Source of the DNA: Camelus dromedarius
Lineage: Eukaryota
Direction: 5' to 3'
Length of the DNA stretch: 64,000 nucleotides
Assembly: GCF_036321535.1 (NCBI RefSeq)
Contig: NC_087436.1
Coordinates: 11,284,001 to 11,348,000 of the forward strand
In this document: in pieces, positions 5,428 through 59,676 of the stretch
How positions within the stretch are numbered: the first letter of the stretch is position 1
Layout: every line of letters starts with the position of its first letter
Notes under the pieces: model-generated
Told to the model about the DNA's origin: nothing
Database searches by the model: none
Seen by the model: only the letters and a program-made list of their open reading frames with translations
Made by a program: the position numbers and the translations under genes

Positions 5428-5509
5428 GGGGGAGGGTATAGCTCAATGGTAGAGCACATGCTTAGCATGCATGAGGCCATTGGTTTGATCTCCAGTGTAC
5501 CTCCATTAA

Positions 5510-8474: not shown

Positions 8475-9112
8475 GGGGGAGGGTATAGCTCAATAGCAGA
8501 GTGTGTGCTTAGCATGCATGAAGTCCTGGGTTCAATCCCCAGCACCTCTGTAACCAAGCAGGACCGGGTGAGGCTTTCCAGGGTCAGACCACTCCCATCC
8601 CATATTCTCTGCTGTAGCTCCTCTCTGAAGCACCCAGATCATAGTATTTCATGTATATTTCCTGAGTTTTCCAGATGCTTAAACCACCACCAAAGGGAAG
8701 AAATTAACTACTTGATGATCAAGGACACATGGTCCCCAGACCTTCTGGTGCCTAGCAGTTGATAGTGTTGACTGCCCTGTTACCTCGACATCAGCTAATC
8801 AGAGGATTGTCCTCGAGCTGATCAGGCACCCTGTGACCCCCTCCCTCACTGGGACTTTAAATATACTTTGCTGAAAACCTTCAGAGAGTTTGGGGCTTTC
8901 TTGGGCATAAGTCACCCTGTCCTCCTTGCTCAGCCCTGCAGTCAACCTTCCTCTGCTCCAAGCTTCAATGTTTCAGTTTGTTTGGCCTCATGGTGTGGCC
9001 AGCACACGAACTTACCTTCGATAACACCTCCATTAAATACATAAATAAGTAACCTAATTACCTCCCCATTAAAAAAAAAAAGAAATAAAAATAAATAAAT
9101 TTAAAAAAAAGA
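8475..9112 (+). mobile_element. vic-1-like SINE split by an LTR insertion
   Basis: SINE head 8475-8548; tail resumes at 9027; near-TSD AAGAAACT(T/G)TAGAA at about 8458 and 9114. Confidence 0.85.
8549..9026 (+). mobile_element. ERV1-type solo LTR (478 bp)
   Basis: TGTAACC...GATAACA termini; 4-bp TSD CCTC at 8545-8548 and 9027-9030; TATA-like TTTAAATATA. Confidence 0.85.
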
Positions 9113-18269: not shown

Positions 18270-18362
18270 TATTTTATTTTTATAAATGAGGGTACTGGGT
18301 ATTGAACCTAGGATCTCGTGCATGCTAAGCGTGCACTCTACCACTGAGCTGTACCCTCCCCA
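18270..18362 (-). mobile_element. vic-1-like SINE
   Basis: GGTACTGGGTATTGAACCTAGG..CACTCTACCACTGAGCTGTACCCTCCC. Confidence 0.85.
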
Positions 18363-20619: not shown

Positions 20620-21525
20620 TATATCCAAGTGGCCAATAGGCATGTGAAAAAGTGCTCAATATCACTAATTATCAGAGAAATGCAAATCAAAACTACAATG
20701 AGATATCCCATCCTAGCAATCAGAATGGCCATCATTCAAAAGTCCACAAACAATAAATGCTGGAGAGGGTGTGGAGAAAAGGGAAGCCTCCTACATTGTT
20801 GGTAGGAATGTAGTTTGGTGCAGCCATTATGGAAAACAGTATGGAGATTTCTCAAAAAACTAAAAATAGACTTACCATATGATCCAGCAATCCCACTCCT
20901 GGGCATACATCCAGAAGGAACTCTACTTCAAAAAGATACATGCACCCCAATGTTCATAGCAGCACTACTTACAATAGCCAAGACATGGAAGCAACCTAAA
21001 TATCCATTGACAGATGACTGGATAAAGAAGATGTGGTATATTTATACAATGGAATACTATTCAGCCATAAAAAAGAATAAAATAATGCCATTTGCAACAA
21101 CATGGATGGATCTGAAGATCATGATTCTAAGTGAAGTAAGCCAGAAAAAAAAAAAAGAAAAACACCATGTGATATCACTCATATGTAGAATCTAAAAAAA
21201 ATAAAAAGAAGACACTAATGAACTTACCTACAAAACAGAAACAGACTTGCAGACATAGCAAACAATCTTATGGTTACCTGGGAAAGAGGGTGGGAAGGGA
21301 TAAATTGGGAGTTCAAGATTTGCAAATATTAACTAGTATATATACAATAAATAAGTTCCTTCTGTATAGCACAAGGAACTATATTCAATATCTTGTAGTA
21401 TAAAGAAAAAGAATATGAAAAGGAATATATGTATGCATATATATGACTGAAACATTATGCTGTACACCAGAAATTGACACATAAACTTACTGTATTTCAA
21501 TTTAAAAAATAGAAAGAAAGAAAAA
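20620..21525 (+). mobile_element. L1 ORF2 C-terminus and 3'UTR
   Basis: ORFs encode [27 protein letters not shown] and [48 protein letters not shown]. Confidence 0.92.
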
Positions 21526-23377: not shown

Positions 23378-23490
23378 AGGGAAGGTATAGATCAGTGGCA
23401 GAGTGTGTCCTTAGCATGTGTGAGGTCCTGGGTTCAATCCCCAGTACTTCTATCAAAAACTAAATAGATAAACTTAATTACCTCCCTCTC
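23378..23490 (+). mobile_element. vic-1-like SINE
   Basis: GGGGAAGGTATAGATCAGTGGCAGAG..GGTCCTGGGTTCAATCCCCAGTAC..TAATTACCTCCC. Confidence 0.85.
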
Positions 23491-26499: not shown

Positions 26500-26952
26500 G
26501 GAGACTTCCTGTCATTCCTGTGTGTTTCTGCATGTGGGACCTGGGTGGACAATGCAAAGTGTAAACAGATGTAAATGGTGAGGGAGGAGGCCAGGCCAGG
26601 CTTTGCGCTGCACACTCCCCAGGCCCAGGTCGGGCCTCTCCCCGGAGCTTGCCGGGGACAGTTCCTCCCAAGTTACCGGGCGCTTGAATGGTTTATTTCA
26701 CCAATATTTGCTTATGGAAATAAAGGGGCGCGGCCAGGGCGGGAGGAGCGGGTGGAGGAGGGGCCTGAGGCCGAGGGGCTCGGGCTGAGCACCAGCAACC
26801 TTGTCTGCTATGATCATTAACCTTTCTGGGGAACGCGGCTGCCCGAGCTCTGAGGCTCAGAATGTGAGGACAGCCCCGCGGACACCGCGCAGGCCGCTCG
26901 GACCGCTCGCTTTACCTCGCGCGCCGTCGCTCCAGCGCAGTGTGGCAGAAAA
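26500..26952 (+). promoter_or_regulatory. APELA promoter and 5'UTR, GC/CpG-rich
   Basis: CpG-dense segment at about 26580-26945 directly upstream of the ATG, with CCAAT at 26701, GC box GGGCGGG at about 26737, and SOX/OCT/FOX-like motifs at 26549-26576. Confidence 0.7.
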
Positions 26953-27028
26953 ATGAGACTTCAACAATTCTTTTTCCTTTTTTTAATCTTTATGATGAGT
27001 CCTCTCCTTATCCACGGACAGAGAGCAG
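26953..27028 (+). CDS. APELA: APELA (ELABELA/Toddler) coding exon 1: signal peptide and start of mature peptide
   Basis: ATG at 26953 with A at -3 reads MRLQQFFFLFLIFMMSPLLIHGQRA plus 1 nt, then the donor CAG|GTAGGA at 27029 (phase 1). Hydrophobic signal-peptide pattern, closely resembling human MRFQQFLFAFFIFIMSLLLISGQRP. Confidence 0.96.
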
Positions 27029-27124
27029 GTAGGACTTTGACACTTTTGTACCGAGTAAATTGTTTTTTATGCCTGTTTGTGCCCATGGGCCTCCGAGCAC
27101 GACTGTGTTTGTATTGAAAATCAC

Positions 27125-27325
27125 TTGGGGTGGGAAGGGATCAATTGGGAGTTCGAGATTTGCAGATACTACCTACTATATATAAAATAAACTACATTCA
27201 GTATCTCGTAGTAGTCTATAATGAAAAAGGATATGAAAACGAATATATATATGTATATGTATGACAGACATTATGGTGTACACGGAAATTGACACATTGT
27301 AACTGTACTTCAACTTTAAAAAACC
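27125..27325 (+). mobile_element. Short L1 3' end in APELA intron 1 (a further fragment at about 28100-28200)
   Basis: GGGTGGGAAGGGATCAATTGGGAGTTCGAGATTTGCAGATAC..ATTCAGTATCTCGTAGTA..GAAATTGACACATTGTAAC. Confidence 0.8.
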
Positions 27326-28386
27326 ACTTAGGTGTGCTTCGGAGAATTGAGGATAAGTGTGTAGGATTTCAGAAATTTGTTGTCTATCCTGGTAGGTCTG
27401 TTATTTGCATGTTTTTAAAAATAGCTAGATTTTAAAATGGTGATAAATATTTTATCACTATTTTTCTAAATTCAAAGAAAATTGATTCCAAAGCTAGCAT
27501 AGGTATGTTATACTTGTAAGTAAAAAGACAGCTGTTATTTCTAGATATATAGTCAGATGTGCCACTTTAAAAGGTGCCATTTTTAGTATTATCACGTTTG
27601 GTCAAGATAAATAATATTAATTCACTTGACATATTTTTCAAGGATTCCATCAGTTGTGTTGTTCTTAAATACCAGGAATTTAGTAAACAAAGTTATTCTA
27701 AAGTGCTTTTACTTCAAAACTAAATATCTAAGATTTCAAAGCACTGGCAAGTTAAAAAAAAGAGTATATACATATATATATGTATCTATATATAAAGTTT
27801 TCTAAGAAAAAAGCCAACTAAATTTAAATAGAAAGGTGACAAAATTTATATCCAAATATGTTAGATTATTCACTTGATAATATACTTCCCCATTTAGAAC
27901 AGAAGATGGTGCATAAGTGATTAAATATTCAGTCTCTGCCTTTTAGTTAATCAGAAGTTTGATCACTGAGATTATTTCAAATAAGGGCTCCTGGTCTGCC
28001 CTTTTACATAAGTAAGAAAAAAATTTCAAATTAACAACTCCAAAAGCATCTGATCCTTTCTTACTGTTTCCAGCAATTGCTATTCAAACTGTTTCTCCTC
28101 TGCACGGGGAACTATATTCAGTATCTTGTAATAGCCTATAATGAAAAAGAATATGAAAAGGACTCTATATATAACTGAATCCCTGTGTATACCAGAAACG
28201 TGAACTGTTAGGAATACCTGTCATGCATTTGCATCACCTTAATTTGTTTTATCACTGCACATCTGAACAAATAGCAAATAATCACAGTATAATTTGGATC
28301 GAGAATGTTCCCTCACATCCTCCAAATTAAACAACATTAATTTTTGGTAAATGCTTCTCATATTTTTCTTTTTTTTTCCCCTGCAG

Positions 28387-28475
28387 CTAATTTGGCAATG
28401 AGGAGAAAGCTGCCCAGATACAACTGTCTTCAGAGGAGATGTATACCCCTCCATTCACGAGTCCCCTTCCCCTGA
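28387..28475 (+). CDS. APELA: APELA coding exon 2: mature ELA peptide C-terminus; spliced protein is 54 aa
   Basis: Long polypyrimidine tract and CTGCAG acceptor ending at 28386. In frame with exon 1 it reads (A)NLAMRRKLPRYNCLQRRCIPLHSRVPFP*, with TGA at 28473-28475. It has the hallmark C-x4-C, two RR dibasic sites and the HSRVPFP C-terminus. Donor G|GTACTT at 28477. Confidence 0.97.
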
Positions 28476-31400
28476 GGTACTTCTGATAGAAAGAGTTTTA
28501 CTGCATTTGGGCAATGTTCCAGATTAGATATCCCTGAGAATGTTTATTCATATTTTGCACGTGTGATCATGGCTTGACAGTGATGTCTGTTTCAGGAACG
28601 CATACTCACAGCTGGCGTAGTAACAGTGACATGAAATGATGTTTGGGAATTGCTTTCATCATTTAATGGAACAGATGAGGAAAATCTTGATAGTTGTTGA
28701 ATTTGAGTGATAGCTGTATGAGGATTAATACTGTTGTATGTGCTTGAGAATTTTCGTAATTGAAGAACCAAGCACTAGGAGAATTTAATTATAAAGGTAT
28801 CTTTAAAAATGAGTTTTGGAAAACACTGACTAGCTCCCTGTGTTTTCCAGAACAAGCACATTTCCCATTAAGACCACTGTGTGCTAAAAATTTTCTGGAC
28901 ACATTTGCCCAATATCACCAAATGGATGATGTATTACCCTCAATACTTAGTAGTTTATTCTTTCTGAAAACATTTCTTTTAATATGTAAAATCAACTTAA
29001 TATTACTGACATGGCAGCTTTCCAGCTTCACTAATAGAATTGGTCTAGATGGTTGCATCTTTAAGGATAAATTCTGAATAGCATTTTTCCCTCTTTTTAA
29101 CATTCATGGAAAAAGCAATGATTTTACACCACCACCATCACCAGGAATACTGCTTGAATCAACTAACTTCAAACACCTGTTTAAGTTACTTCATACTAAA
29201 AAATAAGGAACTTGACATTCCATTGTAATGATTTTAAGCTCTTTAATTTACATGAAATGTATCTTCCTTTAAAAAAATAAGTCATAGAAATATCCTTCAA
29301 CTGGTTAACAGAACACAGGCAATGGCTAAATTAGCGTATTGAGTTGGCCTGTGGACTGGGGTATTTATGGCACTTTTCATTCAGAGGGAAGAATGATTGC
29401 TGTGCCTGTTTTAATACGCGCTTTTCCAGCCAGTGAACACCCGGCGTCAGACAGCAGATGAAGGAAGAACAGTTCAGTAATAAGCATTTATTACGAGAAC
29501 CAAGACAAAAAGCCAAGTTCTCTATGCCTGTATCTGTAACAAATTTGTTTTTGCTAGTAAAACATGAAAAATAAATTTGGTGGAGGAATCCAGAAAGATA
29601 CAATAAAAAGTTCTTGAGAAGCCAATTAATAGGGACTCAAACATGCATTAAAAGGATTTTATATGTGAAAAACATCCTTTGGTATGTGTAGATAATGCAT
29701 TTCAGTCTGTTATGTAAATAATGATAAAAATCTGTGCTTAGGATGGGTGGAGAAGTTCAAGATTTCTCCAGCCCTCCTCCACAGATAACAAAAGAGGCAT
29801 CTTGCAGTAGCGAGGGAATTCCTGCATATGCAGGGAAAGATACCTCACAAACGCGAACAAAAGCCCTTAGTCGGCCACAGGTTATATTGGCTTTCTCCAC
29901 AAACCACCTGCCATAAAAACTCTGCTGCCAGTAAACAAGATAGACTAGGGACATTTGAATTGTCAAAGCTAAGGAAAATTTTGACCTGTAAACCAAATTT
30001 GTAAACCAAAGGGAAATTTGAGTCAAAGCCACATAAGTCTGTTAAGAACAGCAATCCTTTACAAAAGTTGGGTAATCCTTTTAAAGAATGGCTCAGGTTA
30101 CAGCGTCCATTTTCTCAGTGTTTAGACCAGTCCTGCATTCCAGTTAACAGTTTTTTAAAGAATGTGTAGAAGTCACATTTTAGAATCCAGCGATAGTATA
30201 AAAGCCAGTGCAAGGTAAACGTTAAGATAGTTTCCCAAGATCTTGCTCAGCCAGCAAAATGCTACCTTCGGGTTTGATAGCGTGATTCTCACTGTCCTAA
30301 ATACTTGCACATTTTTAATATGTCTTGCGACCAGGTACTTTGACAACTGGATAAAAGCACTGTAAACGCAGGTGTTAGAACTCTGGCGCAGAACCTCCTG
30401 TTCATTTGCCCCCCTCTGTTTCCTTCATGCTTTAGATAAAAATCACAAGTTACTTGACTCAGTTAGGGTCAAGGAAGGTAAAAGGATAGGTAAGGTAAAC
30501 AGTTGACTTTGAAGTTTTACAGATTAACCCTTTAGTGTGGTTTAGGATGGGAAAGCCCTATTACCTTTACTCTGTCCATTTTTCCTTCTCCTGGAGTCCT
30601 TGTCAAAGATCTTCAGTGAGATTTCCTAACAATTGAGGTAGTTAAATAGAAAATCTATGCTGTGTAAAATTCATTTTCTTCGTGCTTCTTTTTTCTCACA
30701 AATATTTTGGCATCACCTTCAGCCCCCAGTGGTTAGAGTGAAGGAAAGCAAGAGAAGGGTGAAACCCAAGCTTATAGGTCGGTGTGAGAAGTAGAGCGGA
30801 AATGAGGTAGGGGCTTTGGTGCTAATGCTGTCCCGTTCCAACAGTATTGTCTCACTACAGCCTCGATTTTATTTATAAATACGCTCTCCTGGTAACTACA
30901 CACTCTGCTAACATGTATTCTTTCCAGCTTTTTAATAATTATTATAATATATGTTCACGGTAGGACATTTTTTTCTAACAGTCTAGGAGAATGTCAAGTC
31001 CAAAGTAAAAGTCTGTCACCCTACCTCATTCCTCGTTTTCATTTCCCAGAGATAACGGCTATGAAAATGTTTTTGGTAAAGGTACCTTTCAATACATGAG
31101 TTTAAATTGAGACCAGTTAATACTCTCTTATCACCCTTGATTGCCATTCAAATGTAAGTGATTCTGGTTGTCTATTTTCTGCCTGATTCTTACCCCCTTA
31201 CAGTCATGGGCTTCTGACCCCCCTGATCAAACCTCTGTCCTGTCTCCAAAATTTTTACTCAACTGTCCTGGTGTCCTGGCCCTTCTCACTCCATTCTGCC
31301 TCTTTGGCTTAACCGAAAGCCAACGCTGCACCCAGAACCTCCACTTCAGTGGAGCACGTCATCACCACCTTTAGCAGGGCTCTCGGGAAGTTAACTCTTC

Positions 31401-31728: not shown

Positions 31729-32680
31729 GGGGGAGGGATAGCTCAGTGGTAGAGCATGTGCTTAGCATGCACGAGGTCCTGAGTTCAATCCCCAGTACTT
31801 CCATTAAAAAATAATAATAAATAAATAAACCTAATTACCTACCCCCCCACCCACACACAATAGGAAAAAATAAAACAAAAAACAAAAAAACAAACCCAAA
31901 CTGATCTATTTCATCTTAGGAAAAAAAAGAAAAGAAAAAAGGTGCACCATTGACCCCGTAGTGCACTCTGGTGACTCGTTTCCTCCCGTCTGTCTTCCAA
32001 CATGCTGCTTCCCAGGGAGAGTTCCCTAGTGACCTCCTTCTTCTGAAATCCAGTGAACACATCAGTTGTCTCTGTGGGTCAAAAGGTAGAATGAGGGGGG
32101 AGGGTAGAGCTCAAAGTGCTAGAGCGCATGCTTAGCATGCACTAGGTCCTGGGTTCAATTCCCAGTACCTCAAATAAACCTAATCCCCCCCACCCCGCCG
32201 CCAAAAAAGAAAAAAACTAAAAATTTTTTTTAATTAAAAAAAAAGAAAAACATAGAATGAATTTTCCTGGTTTCAGTGACACCATGCTTCCGTCTGGCTA
32301 TCTCTGGAATAAGAGATACTTTTCCTCTTAGGACCCGTACGGGGTGTTCAACTGCCAACCTGGCATCACCTCTGCTGCCCTGCAGACTCTGGAAGCCCAC
32401 GGCCACAGTGCACGAGCATGTCTCCGACACGGCTTCCACACAGCTACTCCTGTAACTCGACTCTGTTCCAGTACCATAGATGTCATCAGGAAGGACTTCC
32501 CTGCTGGCAAAAAAGCAGTACCAGAATAAAGTCTTAATACAGGTCAGGAGGGGAGGGTGTAGCTCAAGTGGTAGAGCACATGCTTGAGGTCCTAGGTTCA
32601 ATCCCCAGCATAAAGTAAGATAAATTTAATTACCACCCCCCCCCAAAAAACTAAAAAGATTACATAAAATTTAAAAAAAG
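31729..32680 (+). mobile_element. Cluster of three vic-1-like SINEs (about 31729-31900, 32095-32245, 32549-32680)
   Basis: Three GGGGAGGG..AGCTCA..GGTTCAATCCCCAG-type heads with CTAATTACC-type linkers and A-rich tails. Confidence 0.85.
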
Positions 32681-38283: not shown

Positions 38284-40169
38284 GGGGTCATGGTTATGGT
38301 CATGTCCACCTGCACATCCGTGGTCATGCCAGGAGCTTGGTCAGCCAGTCACTATTCCAGCCCCTTCAGCCTTCCAGAGCATTGACCATTGATTGGTCCT
38401 TTTCTCCTGCTAAGACTGATTATTTCCATAATTGCTGCCAGTATTACAAGCTTCCTGCCACTCTATCTTCATCTCACTGTTCTGGAAGAATCCTGAAGTC
38501 TTCAACCAGGCATGATACTGCTGTTGGAGTATACCCAAGAAGTCAGATTGGAAACCCTTTGAATTCTTCATCCAATCCCATGCTGTCTAGCAAACCTACA
38601 TTTCTGTGGTCAACTTGCCTTACGCTTCACCTTAACGGCTTCTAACTTTTTCTACGCACCTCAAATTTTAGACCCTTATCTTCCTCATTTTCAGCAGAGG
38701 GCCTTGCCTCACGTCACAGAGAAAATGCAAGTCATCACATGGTATATCCCTCAGCTCCCAAGTATAAATCCCACCTCACCCGCCTCCCACTCTGCTCACC
38801 CCGACCCTCTTCCTTTGAGTGCCACGAAGGCGGGACCATGCCTCCATCCATGCGTGGACCCCCTCCCTCCCTTCCCACTTTCTCAGGAATCTTAAAACTG
38901 CCACATACACGTTGTCTTCATTCTCTCTTGCCCTCTGGATCATCATGTCAGCACAGGTTTAAATGCCGGTAAGACTACACAGTAAAACACACACACACAC
39001 ACACACACTCCTCAGTCAAAGCTCTCAAGGATTCTGTCCTTGTCTCCGATGCGTTATTTTCCATTCACATTTCAACCTACTCTCATCTGTCTTATAATTT
39101 CTTTAAAATAACCAATCATTTTCATTTTCTTGGCCTTCCCTCTGATTTCTCAGCAGAATTTAGCAACTGAAGACTCAGCCTGCAAAATCCCTCTCTTAAA
39201 TTCTAGGATACCACACTTAAACTTTCCTGCTAAATTCTTAGCTGACCCTCTGGCTCCTAGGCAGGCTTAATCTTACTTGGGACGACTTGCATGCTAGGGT
39301 TTCTCTTTACTCTCTCCTGCTCTATTTCAACCATTCCTTTAGATTTAATTACCTCTTTACACTGCTAATACTCTGCAGGAAAAAAAAAATCCAAATGAGA
39401 ACAAGCAAAGCCTATTTATTCATAGCTTGCTGTAGCAAGGGAGTCAACCACCATCACTTACGTTGACAGAGGCAGGAGAGTGGGAAAACACATAGAAAAA
39501 AAAGGAAAACTTCAAACCTAATTTGATTGCAGGTTGTTGGTAAGGGACAGTTGATGGCAGGTTACCTAGAAGTGGGGCTTCCTGTGTGATTGGTTTGGGG
39601 AACCTGTATGGCTTTCTCTGGATAGTCCTGAATTAGAATTAGGGGCAAATATTAGTAAAGCTGACAGTTATTGACCAAATTCTTACCATGTGGGGCCAAT
39701 TGTTACAGAGTTTATGGGTCAGAATTCTATTTTAATATATGGTCTAGCCATTGTCCGTTTGTAAATTCAGTCTTCCAGCTCCGAACTTATCTCGTTCCCA
39801 CCACCCACACCTATGTACTGTCTGCCTTGCACCAACTTCCTCGTATCTACTTTTGCTGTTTTATCCATTTTTCATCTTACGGCTTCATGCTGCTTTAATA
39901 CTTTTTAGGTTATCTCTCATCCTACTTGAGATTCACATAAAATTCTTAATGTAACTCACAAAACTGGACATGGAAAAGCATTTCTCTCTCATCCCAACCC
40001 CTGTCTGACTCCCTGTAGCTATCTGTGAGTTTGTAAATGTGTCCTATTCCTTTCCACTTCAGAATTTTCACACATTTTATTTTCTCTGCCTAGGATCTAG
40101 GATTCTTTTTTCCCTTCTCTTTATCGAGTTTATTCCTACTCAATCAAGGCTCTGATCAATTGCCACTTT

Positions 40170-40240
40170 GTATGTGTGTGTATGAGCGTGTGTGTGTGTA
40201 TGAGCGTGTGTGTGTGTATGAGCGTGTGTGTGTGTGTACG
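40170..40240. repeat. TG-rich 18-bp minisatellite (GTATGAGCGTGTGTGTGT x3)
   Basis: Directly visible tandem units. Confidence 0.85.
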
Positions 40241-44483: not shown

Positions 44484-45020
<537 letters not shown>

Positions 45021-51815: not shown

Positions 51816-52949
51816 AAAGCCAGATAACTTCTGAAGTAGTTTGTCAGGAAGACAACGGTCATTCTTAAAAGCAATGGGTCCAGAGGCAGGATTCAGTGTA
51901 TAACAATGAACTCTTCAGGTTAATTAGCACTTATAGGTAAACTGGCCCCATCCTGTTGAATTTTGCTGTACCCTGCAAAGCAGGGTCAACCTTTCAGGAT
52001 TCAGTATCAAAAGGAAAAAGTTCCCTTCTTAAGGAATTTTATATGTCATCAACTGTGAATAGGAATGATAATATAGTAATTATTTTGTATCTTAGAGTAT
52101 TTAAATTAAAACCATATACTCACCCCACAGTAAAAGAACAAAAAGAGGGGAAGCTGCTGCCACCAGCAATTCAAAATGTTTAGGGAACACAACTTTCACA
52201 GTATCTGTTGAGGATTCTCTAACCTGCACCTGTATTTACCTGCCCACCACGCACGACTTCTTGGATCTCTTAAAGGCACCCAAAGACCTGTTTCATGAAT
52301 CATGGCCATTCTTTCAAGATTCAAATATTATTATATCACGTTAATGGTTAAAAATGCTTCACTACATTTCCTTTGCACTTAAAAAAGACCAAACTCTTAA
52401 CCTTCGACTGAAAGGTCTTGCAGCAGTGTTTCTCGCCCATCTCCCCAGCTTCCTGAAGGCCGTTTCTCACCTTTACTACTTCCTGCACCTCCCTGCTCCG
52501 CCCAGGTGCCAGCCACACCAACCTCGATCCTGCATCATGTACCAAGTTCCTCAGCCTTGATGGCCTCCTCACTGGCTCCTCCTTCATCCTTGACCACATT
52601 ACCCTTCACTTCAACTAACTAAATTCACTCTTCAAATTCCACCGCACCCCCGACACTTCCTAAGGAGAGGTCTCAGGGAGCACAAGTCCAGACAGGACAC
52701 AAAGTGCAGGGCGGGGCAGACCCACCCAGTCACCCACCCTGAGGCAACTGATCCTGGAGATGCCTGTTCTTGGAAACCAAACCACTCCTCCCCTGCAGCA
52801 CCCTGTGACCCCAGACCACCAGAAACGGTTAGGAGATGGCGGTGACGCTTTTGACAACTCCCGCAGCTGACTTTGACACTCACCGTGCTCACGGGACTCA
52901 AAGCAGTAATAACGTGAAAAGGCCCCACTGGGAACCAGATGATCGGCAG

Positions 52950-53400
52950 AAGCCAACGTCGGCCGGATCACTTTGGAAACCTGCCCCCCTACCCCATCCC
53001 CCAGGCTCAGGGGCTCGTCCGGGGCTCCCGCCCCGTCACTGAGCATGCGCAGGCCCACCCCTGCCCGTTTCTGGGGGAACCGCCAATCACCGCGCGCCCG
53101 GTGCGCGCCATTTCCTGAGACCGGCCGCTCTGGGGCGTGAGGCCTGCGCCCTGCGCCGGCGCCTCGAGGCTCCTCACAGTCGCCGGCTGGAGAGAGTTGG
53201 GCCGCGCGCTTCAGGTGAGCAGGGAGGGCGAGAGGAAGGGCGGAGGGGGCTTCGCTGAGCGGGGCTTCGCTGGGCGTCTCCCTGCCCTGGACCTCGGGGT
53301 CTCCTCAGACTGCGGCGGTGCGGGGGTGGCGGACGGCGCACAGTGACGGAGACTGACCTGGACGGCGGTTTGGGAATTGCTGCATTATTTCCAAGGAGTT
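52950..53400 (+). promoter_or_regulatory. CpG-island promoter and non-coding exon 1 of the TRIM60-like gene
   Basis: High CpG density; GC box 53027-53034, NRF1-like GCATGCGCA 53043-53051, CCAAT 53083, YY1-like CGCCATTT 53106-53113; strong donor CAG|GTGAGC at 53215. Confidence 0.75.
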
Positions 53401-55461
53401 GCTGTTTGGTGTGAGGAAAACGGGGGGTGTTGAGGGAGTGGGGTGGTGGCCACCGTTTAGGTACTGTGACCACACAGTGCCTACCTTGGTGGGCCTTTTA
53501 AGCCTTGTTTCCCACGAAGCAGTGGTTCACACGTGGCCCCGGGCCCGCAGCATCCCCTGGGAACGTCTTAGAACTACCAGAGGGCGGCTGAATCGGAAAG
53601 TGGCCCTGTGACTTAGCAGGCTTTTGCCTAGACTTACAGGTAGTTATGATGCCAGCTAAGGTTTGAGAACTATTTTCTTAAAACAGTAAAGGACCAGTAG
53701 ACTGTTTTAAATTGGAAGATGAAAGGATTATATTGTATATGGAAAGATCAGTTTAGCTACAGAGTTAGGGAATTGATTGGAGGCTCCGTTGTGTTTCGGA
53801 GTAGAAAAGGGCTCGTAATCCAGGGAGAGACGTGGTGGCTTGAAATAGGGTGGTAACAGTGCATACGAAGCTGGTTCTGTGCACCTCACGGTCTGTGTAC
53901 TTAAGGGCTTGATTCTGAGAAGCTAGGAAGACTGGTTTGTGTGTATGCTGGGAAAAGAAAACACAGTAATACTGGAGTGATTGAGTACCTTATCATAGTC
54001 CTTGTACTGTGCTAGAGTCCTTTTTTATACATACTTTCTTAAAAGTTTTTTTTTTTCTTCTGATTTTGGTTTTCCTGTTAAGGTCTGCAATTTACTAGCT
54101 GTGTGACATTGGCAAGATGCTTAAAACTTCCTTCAGCCTCCATTTTCTAATCTCTGACCACCCCCAATCCCATTCGCCCCCCCCCCCCCCCCATCTTCCT
54201 TAGCCTACTCAGAAGTACCAATTTGAAAGTATTAGGCAAGGATTGGAAGTCACCGAAGCCTTGGCTCGTAGCTATCATAATGTGGCATGGGCAGGTAGGG
54301 AGATTGGCTTGGAGGAGACTGTGTGCAAGTTAATGCCTTTACTAGTCATTGAGGATTTAGAAACTACAGGACACATAGCAGCTTTTAGGTTAAATGTCGG
54401 TGCTTTTTGTATGCTAATCAATACACGTACATACGTGTGTGTATATATGTAATATATAATGTAATGAAGTGTGAAATGTTACGGTCTAAGTATGTGGATT
54501 TGGCTAGATTTCTAAGAGCTTTTGAGATTTTTTAAGATGGTGTTAGAACTTTTTATCGTACGTGTGTTAAATGCCAGGCACTGTGACATGTGCCTTACGT
54601 TATTTTCTCATTTAATGATTACAGTGTGAGATAGTATTATTTCTCACTTAGTGAAAAGAAAACTGAACCTTAGAAATTTTAATTTGGCAGGGACATATAG
54701 CTAGTTAAGTGGCGTGGTTGGATGCAAACCCAGTTCTCTCAGGTGTTGCTACCTCTCAGTTTGTGTTTATCTGTTTTCAGTTATAAGGCTGGAGTCAGTA
54801 AACCCCTGTTTTTTCACCTTAAAAATTTTTGGAATATGTTATCAAATGTGAATAAATGTGAACATATCAAATATGAAAAATACAAGGTGCTTTGAAATAG
54901 AAGTAGAGGGAAGCAGAGAATACTGCGGGCATATGAAGAAGGGGCAGTAGGCAGTACAACGTAGTGATTGAGTATCGTTTCAGTGGTTATGCCAATTAAT
55001 GTGGTGTTGTATGAGTGTATTCAAAGGATTGTAAACTCAGCTTTTACACTTCAAACCGAGGAAAATAGCTCCTCATCAGATTGTTCTCAAAGTTTAATTG
55101 AATCAATGATTTAATGAAAGAGCCTTAGTAGTGCCTGATACATGATAAACCATCCTAGAGAACCTTTCTCTTGGGCTGAGTCTCCCTAAGGAGCAAAAAT
55201 CAGTCCCAAGAAGTGAGAAAAGAGTAGTCTAAGCAGTGAGTGGTTGCAAAGAGGAAGGAGAGCATGACACCTCTGTTAAAAAATAAATGAATAAATAAAA
55301 ACCAAGTACTTTGTGGCACCATAGCCAGATGGAGATAATGAGGTATGAAGGACTCTGAATTGTAAGCTAAAAGGTGGAGCACTTGTCCTGACTTTCTTTG
55401 GTGAGTTGTTGACAGGTTTAAATGAGGGGAAGATTGAATCAGCTTAAAAAATAAAGGTTTG

Positions 55462-55545
55462 TGGGGAGGGTATAGCTCAGTGGTAGAGTGTGTCCTTAGC
55501 ATGCCTGAGGTCCTGGGTTCAATCCCCAGTACCTCCATTAAAAAA
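55462..55545 (+). mobile_element. vic-1-like SINE in the TRIM60-like intron
   Basis: GGGGAGGGTATAGCTCAGTGGTAGAG..GGTCCTGGGTTCAATCCCCAGTACCTCCATTAAAA. Confidence 0.88.
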
Positions 55546-58254: not shown

Positions 58255-59676
58255 ATGGAGTTTGTGACAGCCCTGGCAGACCTCCAGGCAGGGGCGAGCT
58301 GCCCCATCTGTCTGGACTACTTGAAAGACCCAGTGACTATCATCTGTGGGCATAACTTCTGTCGGTCCTGTATTGATATGTCCTGGAAGGATCTAAATGA
58401 TACTTTCCCCTGCCCTTTTTGCAGATTTTGCTGTTCAGAAAGGAAATTGATGCGCAATCTCCAGCTGGGCAATTTGATTGAAATTGCTAAGCTGCTCCAG
58501 ATGAGAAAAAGCAAGAGGAAGAGGCAGGAAGAGAAGCTTATGTGTGAAAAGCACAATCAGGTTTTGATTTTTTTCTGTCAGAAGGACCGAGAGGTTTTAT
58601 GTCCACAGTGCAGTTTCTCCACTGATCACCGGAATCACTACATTTGGCCCATAGAAAAAGCTGCCCCCTATCACAGGAAAAGATTGGAGCGTTGCACTGA
58701 GCTTTGGAAGGAGAGAATGGAGCAAGCTGAAAAAGTAATAACTATGCAAACCAGAAAATCATTGGAACTGAAGAAGAAAGTGGAATATAGGAGAGAAGAA
58801 ATAAAGGCTGAATTTGAGCAACTTGTGTTGTTTCTCCAAAATGAGCAAAAGACTGTTCTTCGGCAATTACAAGATGAAGAAATGGATATTTTAACAAAAC
58901 TAAATGAAAATCTAACAAAATTTTCAGATCATGTTTCCATATTAAAATATCTATTAAAGGAGATAGAGAGCAAATATGTGAAGTCAGAACTGGAATTACT
59001 GGCAGATGTTAAAAATATCTACCATAGGTATAGAACCATAGAGTCTCCTGAACCTTTTTCATTCCAGTTGAAAGAATATGGTTACAGTCTTCCTCCACAG
59101 TATTCTGGCCTAAACAAAATTATCAAGCAGTTTCAAGTAGATGTAGTTCTAGATCCTGAAACAGCACATCGTAAACTTATTGTCTCAGAAGATAGGAAAA
59201 CTGTGCATTATGGAAGTAAAATGAAAAGCTTATCTCGTAACCCGAGGAAATTTTATCTCTGCCCAGCTGTTCTGGGTTCTCAGGGCTATAGTGCTGGCAG
59301 GCATTATTGGGAGGTAGAAGTGAAAGACAAGCCTGAATGGATCGTGGGTGTCTGTGAAGACTCGCTTCCCAGAAGGAGAAAGAGTCAGAATCAGTGGATT
59401 TTAGTACAGGATGGATTATGGGGTATTGGACGATGCAGTCAGAGTAATTATGTTGCATTGGGCCCTAAAAAAATTAATCTTCTGCCAAGAGTAACACCCA
59501 GTAAGATTGGCGTGTTTTTGGACTATGATTTGGGTGAGGTTTCCTTTTACAATTTGAGTGATAGAGCTCTTCTCTATATTTTTAGTGATTGTTTTACAGA
59601 AGCACTTTGGCCTTATTTCTATACTGGAACTGACTCTAAACCTCTTAAAATCTGTACAGTAGCAGATTCTGAATGA
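58255..59676 (+). CDS. TRIM60: TRIM60/TRIM61-family E3 ubiquitin ligase (RING, B-box2, coiled-coil, PRY/SPRY), 473 aa, intronless CDS
   Basis: ATG at 58255 (MEFVTALADL...). RING CPIC..CGH..CRSC..CPFC; B-box CEKH..C..CPQC..HRNH; B30.2 motifs LDPETAH, GRHYWEVEV, IGVFLDYD. C-terminus WPYFYTGTDSKPLKICTVADSE is TRIM60-like. The N-terminal half looks closer to human TRIM61, so the paralog assignment is uncertain. Confidence 0.9.
   Translation: MEFVTALADLQAGASCPICLDYLKDPVTIICGHNFCRSCIDMSWKDLNDTFPCPFCRFCCSERKLMRNLQLGNLIEIAKLLQMRKSKRKRQEEKLMCEKHNQVLIFFCQKDREVLCPQCSFSTDHRNHYIWPIEKAAPYHRKRLERCTELWKERMEQAEKVITMQTRKSLELKKKVEYRREEIKAEFEQLVLFLQNEQKTVLRQLQDEEMDILTKLNENLTKFSDHVSILKYLLKEIESKYVKSELELLADVKNIYHRYRTIESPEPFSFQLKEYGYSLPPQYSGLNKIIKQFQVDVVLDPETAHRKLIVSEDRKTVHYGSKMKSLSRNPRKFYLCPAVLGSQGYSAGRHYWEVEVKDKPEWIVGVCEDSLPRRRKSQNQWILVQDGLWGIGRCSQSNYVALGPKKINLLPRVTPSKIGVFLDYDLGEVSFYNLSDRALLYIFSDCFTEALWPYFYTGTDSKPLKICTVADSE

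Follow-up and report, generated by a model that had tools for sequence, protein, structure and literature searches.

The locus at positions 26953 to 28475 is almost certainly the Camelus orthologue of APELA (ELABELA/Toddler), a small spliced gene which codes for a 54-residue secreted pre-peptide. It lies in a stretch of 64,000 nucleotides, here called the window; in the assembly, which comprises 171 contigs and 2.31 Gb, this stretch is C1:11284001-11348000. The gene structure, the intact open reading frame, the sequence identity, the family membership, the single copy and the synteny of the locus are established from the sequence. APELA is a well-studied hormone gene from a known family, the orthologue found here is likewise known, and RefSeq already contains an identical protein for Camelus. 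The original prediction of a possible lack of annotation adds nothing new, since this protein has already been annotated in public Camelus records (e.g., XP_010953806.1). A further remark, that the gene had long been taken for non-coding, agrees with a review, in which APELA is described as having first been regarded as such (PMC13197934).

The coding sequence of APELA is divided over two exons, which are separated by a single intron:

26953..27028, plus strand: coding part of APELA exon 1, 76 nt, from Met1 through base 1 of codon 25
27029..28386, plus strand: APELA intron 1, 1358 nt, GT..AG, phase 1
28387..28475, plus strand: coding part of APELA exon 2, 89 nt, codon 25 from its second base, through Pro54, and the TGA

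The ATG start codon is located at 26953-26955 on the plus strand and is the first in-frame ATG downstream of an in-frame stop codon at 26851, with no in-frame ATG lying between the two. The signal peptide and the start of ELA-32 are encoded by exon 1, the donor of which reads CAG/GTAGGA, where CAG at the end of the exon is followed by GTAGGACT. At the 3' end of intron 1, about 20 pyrimidines were found in a run, followed by CAG. Near this end lies a branch-point-like CTCAT motif, the A of which is located at 28360, 27 nt upstream of exon 2. The greater part of ELA-32 is encoded by exon 2, with the two dibasic sites, Cys39 and Cys44, and the C-terminal receptor-binding 11-mer, and the APELA coding sequence ends with the stop codon TGA at 28473-28475.

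When the two exons are joined by their coordinates, 165 nt (76 + 89) are obtained, which code for 54 residues and the terminal stop with no internal stop codon. The phase-1 junction splits the codon G/CT of Ala25. Splicing of intron 1 at 27028^28387 is suggested by the exact match of the joined product to the annotated APELA protein. The two exons of 76 and 89 nt, the canonical phase-1 splice sites and the 54-residue product had all been predicted, and were recovered exactly at these positions. The gene had also been predicted to be invisible to a list of open reading frames, and this was borne out: in the stop-to-stop list, the two exons are contained only within frames of 87 and 44 residues. 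APELA is missed by a simple list of this kind because neither exon forms an ATG-started open reading frame of useful length. A two-exon micropeptide gene which escapes such a list can nevertheless be recognised correctly from the raw sequence.

The spliced product is identical at 54/54 residues to a protein named 'apelin receptor early endogenous ligand' by NCBI for both Camelus dromedarius and C. bactrianus (P0005; XP_010953806.1, XP_010984669.1, XP_010984670.1, and XP_014418759.1), so that no difference exists on the protein level between the annotated Camelus APELA and the product of the window. When the 44-residue frame containing exon 2 was compared to the protein collection, two apelin receptor early endogenous ligand proteins of 54 residues were identified, from alpaca and humpback whale; P0005 is a member of the cluster of the alpaca protein. 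The spliced product is identical to the alpaca sequences at 52/54 and 53/54 residues, to five cetacean entries (P0004, P0007-P0010) at 47-48/54, and to the buffalo, walrus-cluster, pygmy sperm whale and bat entries at 42-45/54. The nine laurasiatherian entries other than alpaca all have a length of 54 residues, with identities of 42-48/54 over the whole group. The alpaca and cetacean proteins (P0003, P0004, P0007-P0010) consist of 54 residues as well, with an architecture equal to that of the camel protein.

On the level of protein families, P0005, and with it the product of the window, matches the Pfam family Toddler (PF22050, 'Apelin receptor early endogenous ligand') with 86.5 bits and an E-value of 1.5e-24, along positions 1-58 of the 58 in the profile, the cut-off of this family being 27 bits. 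The two exons contribute collinear halves to this match. The exon-2 peptide (28 residues) reaches 55.8 bits (E 5.7e-15) at profile positions 31-58, and the exon-1 peptide (25 residues) reaches 22.3 bits at positions 1-24, which alone lies below the cut-off. Among proteins of known structure, the exon-2 peptide aligns with the 32-residue ELA-32 chain 7w0n_D at an E-value of 2.3e-12, with 23/28 residues identical. The same chain is also present in 7w0o and 7w0p, and the only other match in the PDB has an E-value of 5. The proposed assignment of the product to APELA was thereby confirmed by the 54/54 identity to the annotated Camelus protein, by the Toddler profile and by the alignment with ELA-32. 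Similarity to APELA proteins is present throughout, at 54/54 residues in Camelus and at 42-53/54 in other mammals.

For the APELA family, reviews describe a signal peptide of 22 residues, cleavage of ELA-32 at dibasic sites into ELA-21/22 and ELA-11, two conserved cysteines and a C-terminus that hardly varies (PMC10644379, PMC13197934, PMC7485868). In the camel precursor, the n-region has a charge of +1, the h-region comprises 15 residues with a mean Kyte-Doolittle value of 2.64, and Ile and Gly are located at positions -3 and -1 before Gln23. By this simple arithmetic, an N-terminal signal peptide of 22 residues is predicted, which would leave a mature peptide of 32 residues. The 32-residue part is strongly basic, with eight Lys and Arg residues and no Asp or Glu. 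Two dibasic sites are present, R31 R32 K33 and R42 R43.

Conservation was assessed in two alignments. In the first, which contains 12 laurasiatherian APELA sequences, the residues M1, R2, G22, Q23, R24, R31, R32, K33, R36, C39, Q41, R42, R43 and P46-P54 are invariant, including both dibasic sites, and C44 is kept in 11 of the 12. For the second, an exhaustive HMMER search with P0005 over 1.84 billion representatives was used, in which 18 proteins were identified at E <= 0.001. One of these, P0145, with 1267 residues and 16 matched stretches, was taken to be a repetitive unrelated protein and was omitted, and the wide alignment consists of P0005 and the 17 other matches. Here R36, C39, C44, L47 and H48 are invariant, distant representatives included, and the RVPFP end is found in 16/18 sequences. 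The product of the window keeps these five residues and the RVPFP end. Within the C-terminal 11-mer, the sole deviation is I45 in place of M. A signal-peptide-like N-terminus, the two dibasic sites, the cysteine pair and the PFP end, as in the original prediction, were all found and are conserved, the N-terminus being judged by arithmetic.

The APELA gene has been described to consist of three exons which give rise to the 54-residue precursor (PMC10644379, PMC13197934, PMC7485868). In the window, a possible further donor is located at the end of the coding sequence:

28476..28483, plus strand: possible donor TGAG/GTACTT directly after the stop codon, from which a non-coding exon 3 would be reached

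In 28460-29760, which was inspected and scanned for poly(A) signals, exon 3 could not be placed, and there are candidates only: two acceptor-like sites, around 28850 and around 29428, and the AATAAA signals at 29570 and 29602. No choice among these acceptor and poly(A) candidates is justified, and the ends of the APELA transcript were not found in 28460-29760.

The transcript itself has been assigned a function in the mouse. In embryonic stem cells, according to a commentary (PMC4465304), Apela RNA is a binding partner of hnRNPL and modulates p53-mediated apoptosis without its coding region, which is dispensable for this role. This might suggest that the locus acts mainly as a regulatory RNA and that the peptide is secondary. 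However, the receptor-binding residues are conserved across 18 sequences, and the open reading frame and the splice sites are intact, which speaks for selection acting at the protein level. The role of the RNA, reported from one cell type, is additional to the peptide and no alternative to it, and the part of the camel transcript beyond the coding exons was not located by the scan of 28460-29760. A mainly regulatory RNA is regarded as highly improbable at this locus.

Immediately 5' of the start codon of APELA, the base composition changes:

26651..26950, plus strand: CpG-rich patch immediately 5' of the APELA ATG, 300 nt with GC 0.63 and CpG o/e 0.88

The CpG o/e of 0.88 in this patch compares to 0.26 window-wide, and the patch probably holds the promoter and the 5' UTR of APELA. 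Just upstream of the core of the patch, at 26695-26730 on the plus strand, the sequence is CACCAATATTTGCTTATGGAAATAAAGG. This sequence may contain a CCAAT box, an AATAAAG similar to a TATA box and a stretch like a Sox/Oct composite element. If real, the latter would be of interest, as APELA is expressed in pluripotent cells.

Within intron 1, a dispersed repeat of 63 nt is present in two copies, at 27190-27252 and 28110-28172 on the plus strand, which are 87% alike. Each copy is followed by AT-rich simple sequence. These repeats are probably fragments of an interspersed element.

In the complete assembly of 2.31 Gb, P0005 matches only the two exons at 26953-27028 and 28387-28475, and APELA is considered to be single-copy on this basis. 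No additional copies or processed pseudogenes were detected in the assembly at E <= 0.001, in a search which scores the best candidates only. Downstream of APELA, a second gene serves as a marker for synteny:

58255..59676, plus strand: intronless TRIM60-family gene, 473 aa (RING, B-box, PRY, SPRY)

This gene lies 30 kb downstream of APELA on the same strand. Its product is 100% identical over 473 residues to the NCBI entry 'TRIM60 [Camelus dromedarius]', and among other mammals the closest proteins bear the names TRIM60-like or putative TRIM61. For bats, and likewise for further mammals, the TRIM60/61/75 cluster was reported to be flanked by TMEM192 and APELA (PMC10145180). The synteny fits the APELA locus, since that report places APELA at the edge of the cluster.

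The number of copies also bears on the idea that the locus is an unexpressed relic or a recent pseudogene, the open reading frame of which is still intact by chance. The locus contains neither a frameshift nor a premature stop codon, has two canonical splice sites and a CpG-rich patch at the 5' end, and keeps all family-invariant residues. Moreover, it is the only copy in the genome and differs from the alpaca sequence at only 2/54 residues, so that a pseudogene is extremely unlikely. A chance pairing of two short frames with an APELA-like appearance has practically no probability left and was rejected, being already refuted by the E-value of 1.5e-24 to Pfam Toddler and the 54/54 identity to an annotated protein, with the matching synteny in addition.

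For the camel APELA gene, secretion, processing, receptor binding and physiology would be expected to follow those of the family. By analogy to human, rodents and zebrafish, the signal peptide of 22 residues would be removed after Gly22, giving rise to the basic 32-residue hormone ELA-32. In ELA-32, a disulfide is predicted to be formed between Cys39 and Cys44; the Cys-Cys disulfide of ELABELA is also given as a prediction in the review (PMC13197934). Cleavage at RRK 31-33 and RR 42-43 may then yield shorter forms of 21/22 and 11 residues, and shorter forms produced by furin-type cleavage of ELA have been described (PMC13197934). The conserved C-terminal 11-mer would enter the hydrophobic pocket of APLNR, the apelin receptor, which is a GPCR coupled mainly to Gi. 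In the same review, the receptor contacts are assigned to the 11 C-terminal residues, with Phe31 of ELA-32 located deep in an aromatic pocket, and the receptor is described as principally Gi-coupled (PMC13197934). The expression of APELA was reported to peak in the early embryo and to be found also in adult kidney, prostate and vascular endothelium (PMC13197934). Among the papers listed, and judged by their titles, no functional data specific for camel APELA were found. The exact coordinates, intact splice sites, single copy and synteny of the camel gene should be useful for studies of apelinergic fluid balance in camelids.

The closest structural comparison is provided by human ELA-32 in the complexes 7w0n, 7w0o and 7w0p, to which the camel exon-2 peptide is identical at 23/28 residues. 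To judge from this identity to a ligand in solved complexes, camel ELA-32 would be an agonist of APLNR. The two peptides agree in both dibasic sites, in the two cysteines and in the PLHSRVPFP end. The five substitutions (camel/human, in the numbering of the camel precursor) are A29/T, P35/R, R36/K, Y37/H and I45/M, and position 45 of the camel precursor corresponds to Met23 of human ELA-32. At Met23, norleucine was reported to improve a short analogue (PMC13197934), and since this replacement improves the analogue, an aliphatic residue at position 45 is probably tolerated in the camel peptide, so that receptor binding would be expected to be kept with I45.

Among the natural ligands of APLNR, apelin (APLN) is the first and ELABELA the second. 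A second comparison can be made to apelin, the description of which is taken from the same review (PMC13197934). Like ELABELA, apelin is a secreted basic peptide which is cut at basic sites and inserts a hydrophobic C-terminus into the pocket of APLNR. However, it is encoded by a separate gene of a separate family and has only about 25% sequence similarity to ELABELA.

Some positions of the precursor distinguish the camelids. Among the 12 aligned sequences, P17 and P35 are found only in the two camelid sequences, A25 is found only in the Camelus sequence, and I45 is common to the camelids and one whale entry. The distant partial representative P0137 also has KLPR. It might be proposed that Pro17 in the signal peptide, Pro35 between the processing sites and Ile45 in the 11-mer tune the hormone for renal water economy in camelids. 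If true, these changes might alter the processing, the half-life or the APLNR signalling bias of ELABELA in the kidney. In semi-arid-adapted indicine cattle, APELA was identified among the positively selected genes of fluid homeostasis (PMC10684552); in the accessible part of that study, camels are mentioned only in another connection. A desert-specific meaning is argued against by the occurrence of the changes in alpaca, of I45 in a whale entry and of KLPR in P0137, and the proposal is considered to be very unlikely.

In the remainder of the window, several other elements were noted. The largest CpG island is located at 52801-53500 (700 nt, GC 0.65, CpG o/e 0.74); it precedes the TRIM60-family open reading frame by about 4.8 kb and may represent the promoter or a 5' non-coding exon of this gene. 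A minus-strand stop-to-stop frame of 214 residues at this island has no match in Pfam.

When the whole window was searched with Rfam, no match fell at the APELA locus, and only seven tRNA-like matches were obtained, with scores of 35-54 bits. Three of the tRNA-like elements are called tRNA-Ala(AGC) by ARAGORN. From the two programs, the following elements were obtained:

1918-1990, 23381-23452 and 31732-31803, plus strand: tRNA-like elements (Rfam / ARAGORN)
5432-5504, 8479-8550, 32100-32172 and 55466-55537, plus strand: tRNA-like elements (Rfam / ARAGORN)
18287-18358, minus strand: tRNA-like element (Rfam / ARAGORN)

The element at 31732 is directly followed by an A-rich tail with repeated AATAAA. 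The tRNA-like elements are probably heads of tRNA-derived SINEs and not tRNA genes.

At 20806-21195 on the plus strand, an open frame of 129 residues is present, for which no Pfam match was obtained at E <= 0.01. Its sequence appears to resemble the C-terminal part of a LINE-1 ORF2 protein. At 40169-40237, an imperfect (TG)n microsatellite is located, in which a higher-order unit of 18 nt recurs 3.5 times, and a small CpG-rich patch of 250 nt (GC 0.55, o/e 0.75), to which no gene is assigned, was identified at 44651-44900.
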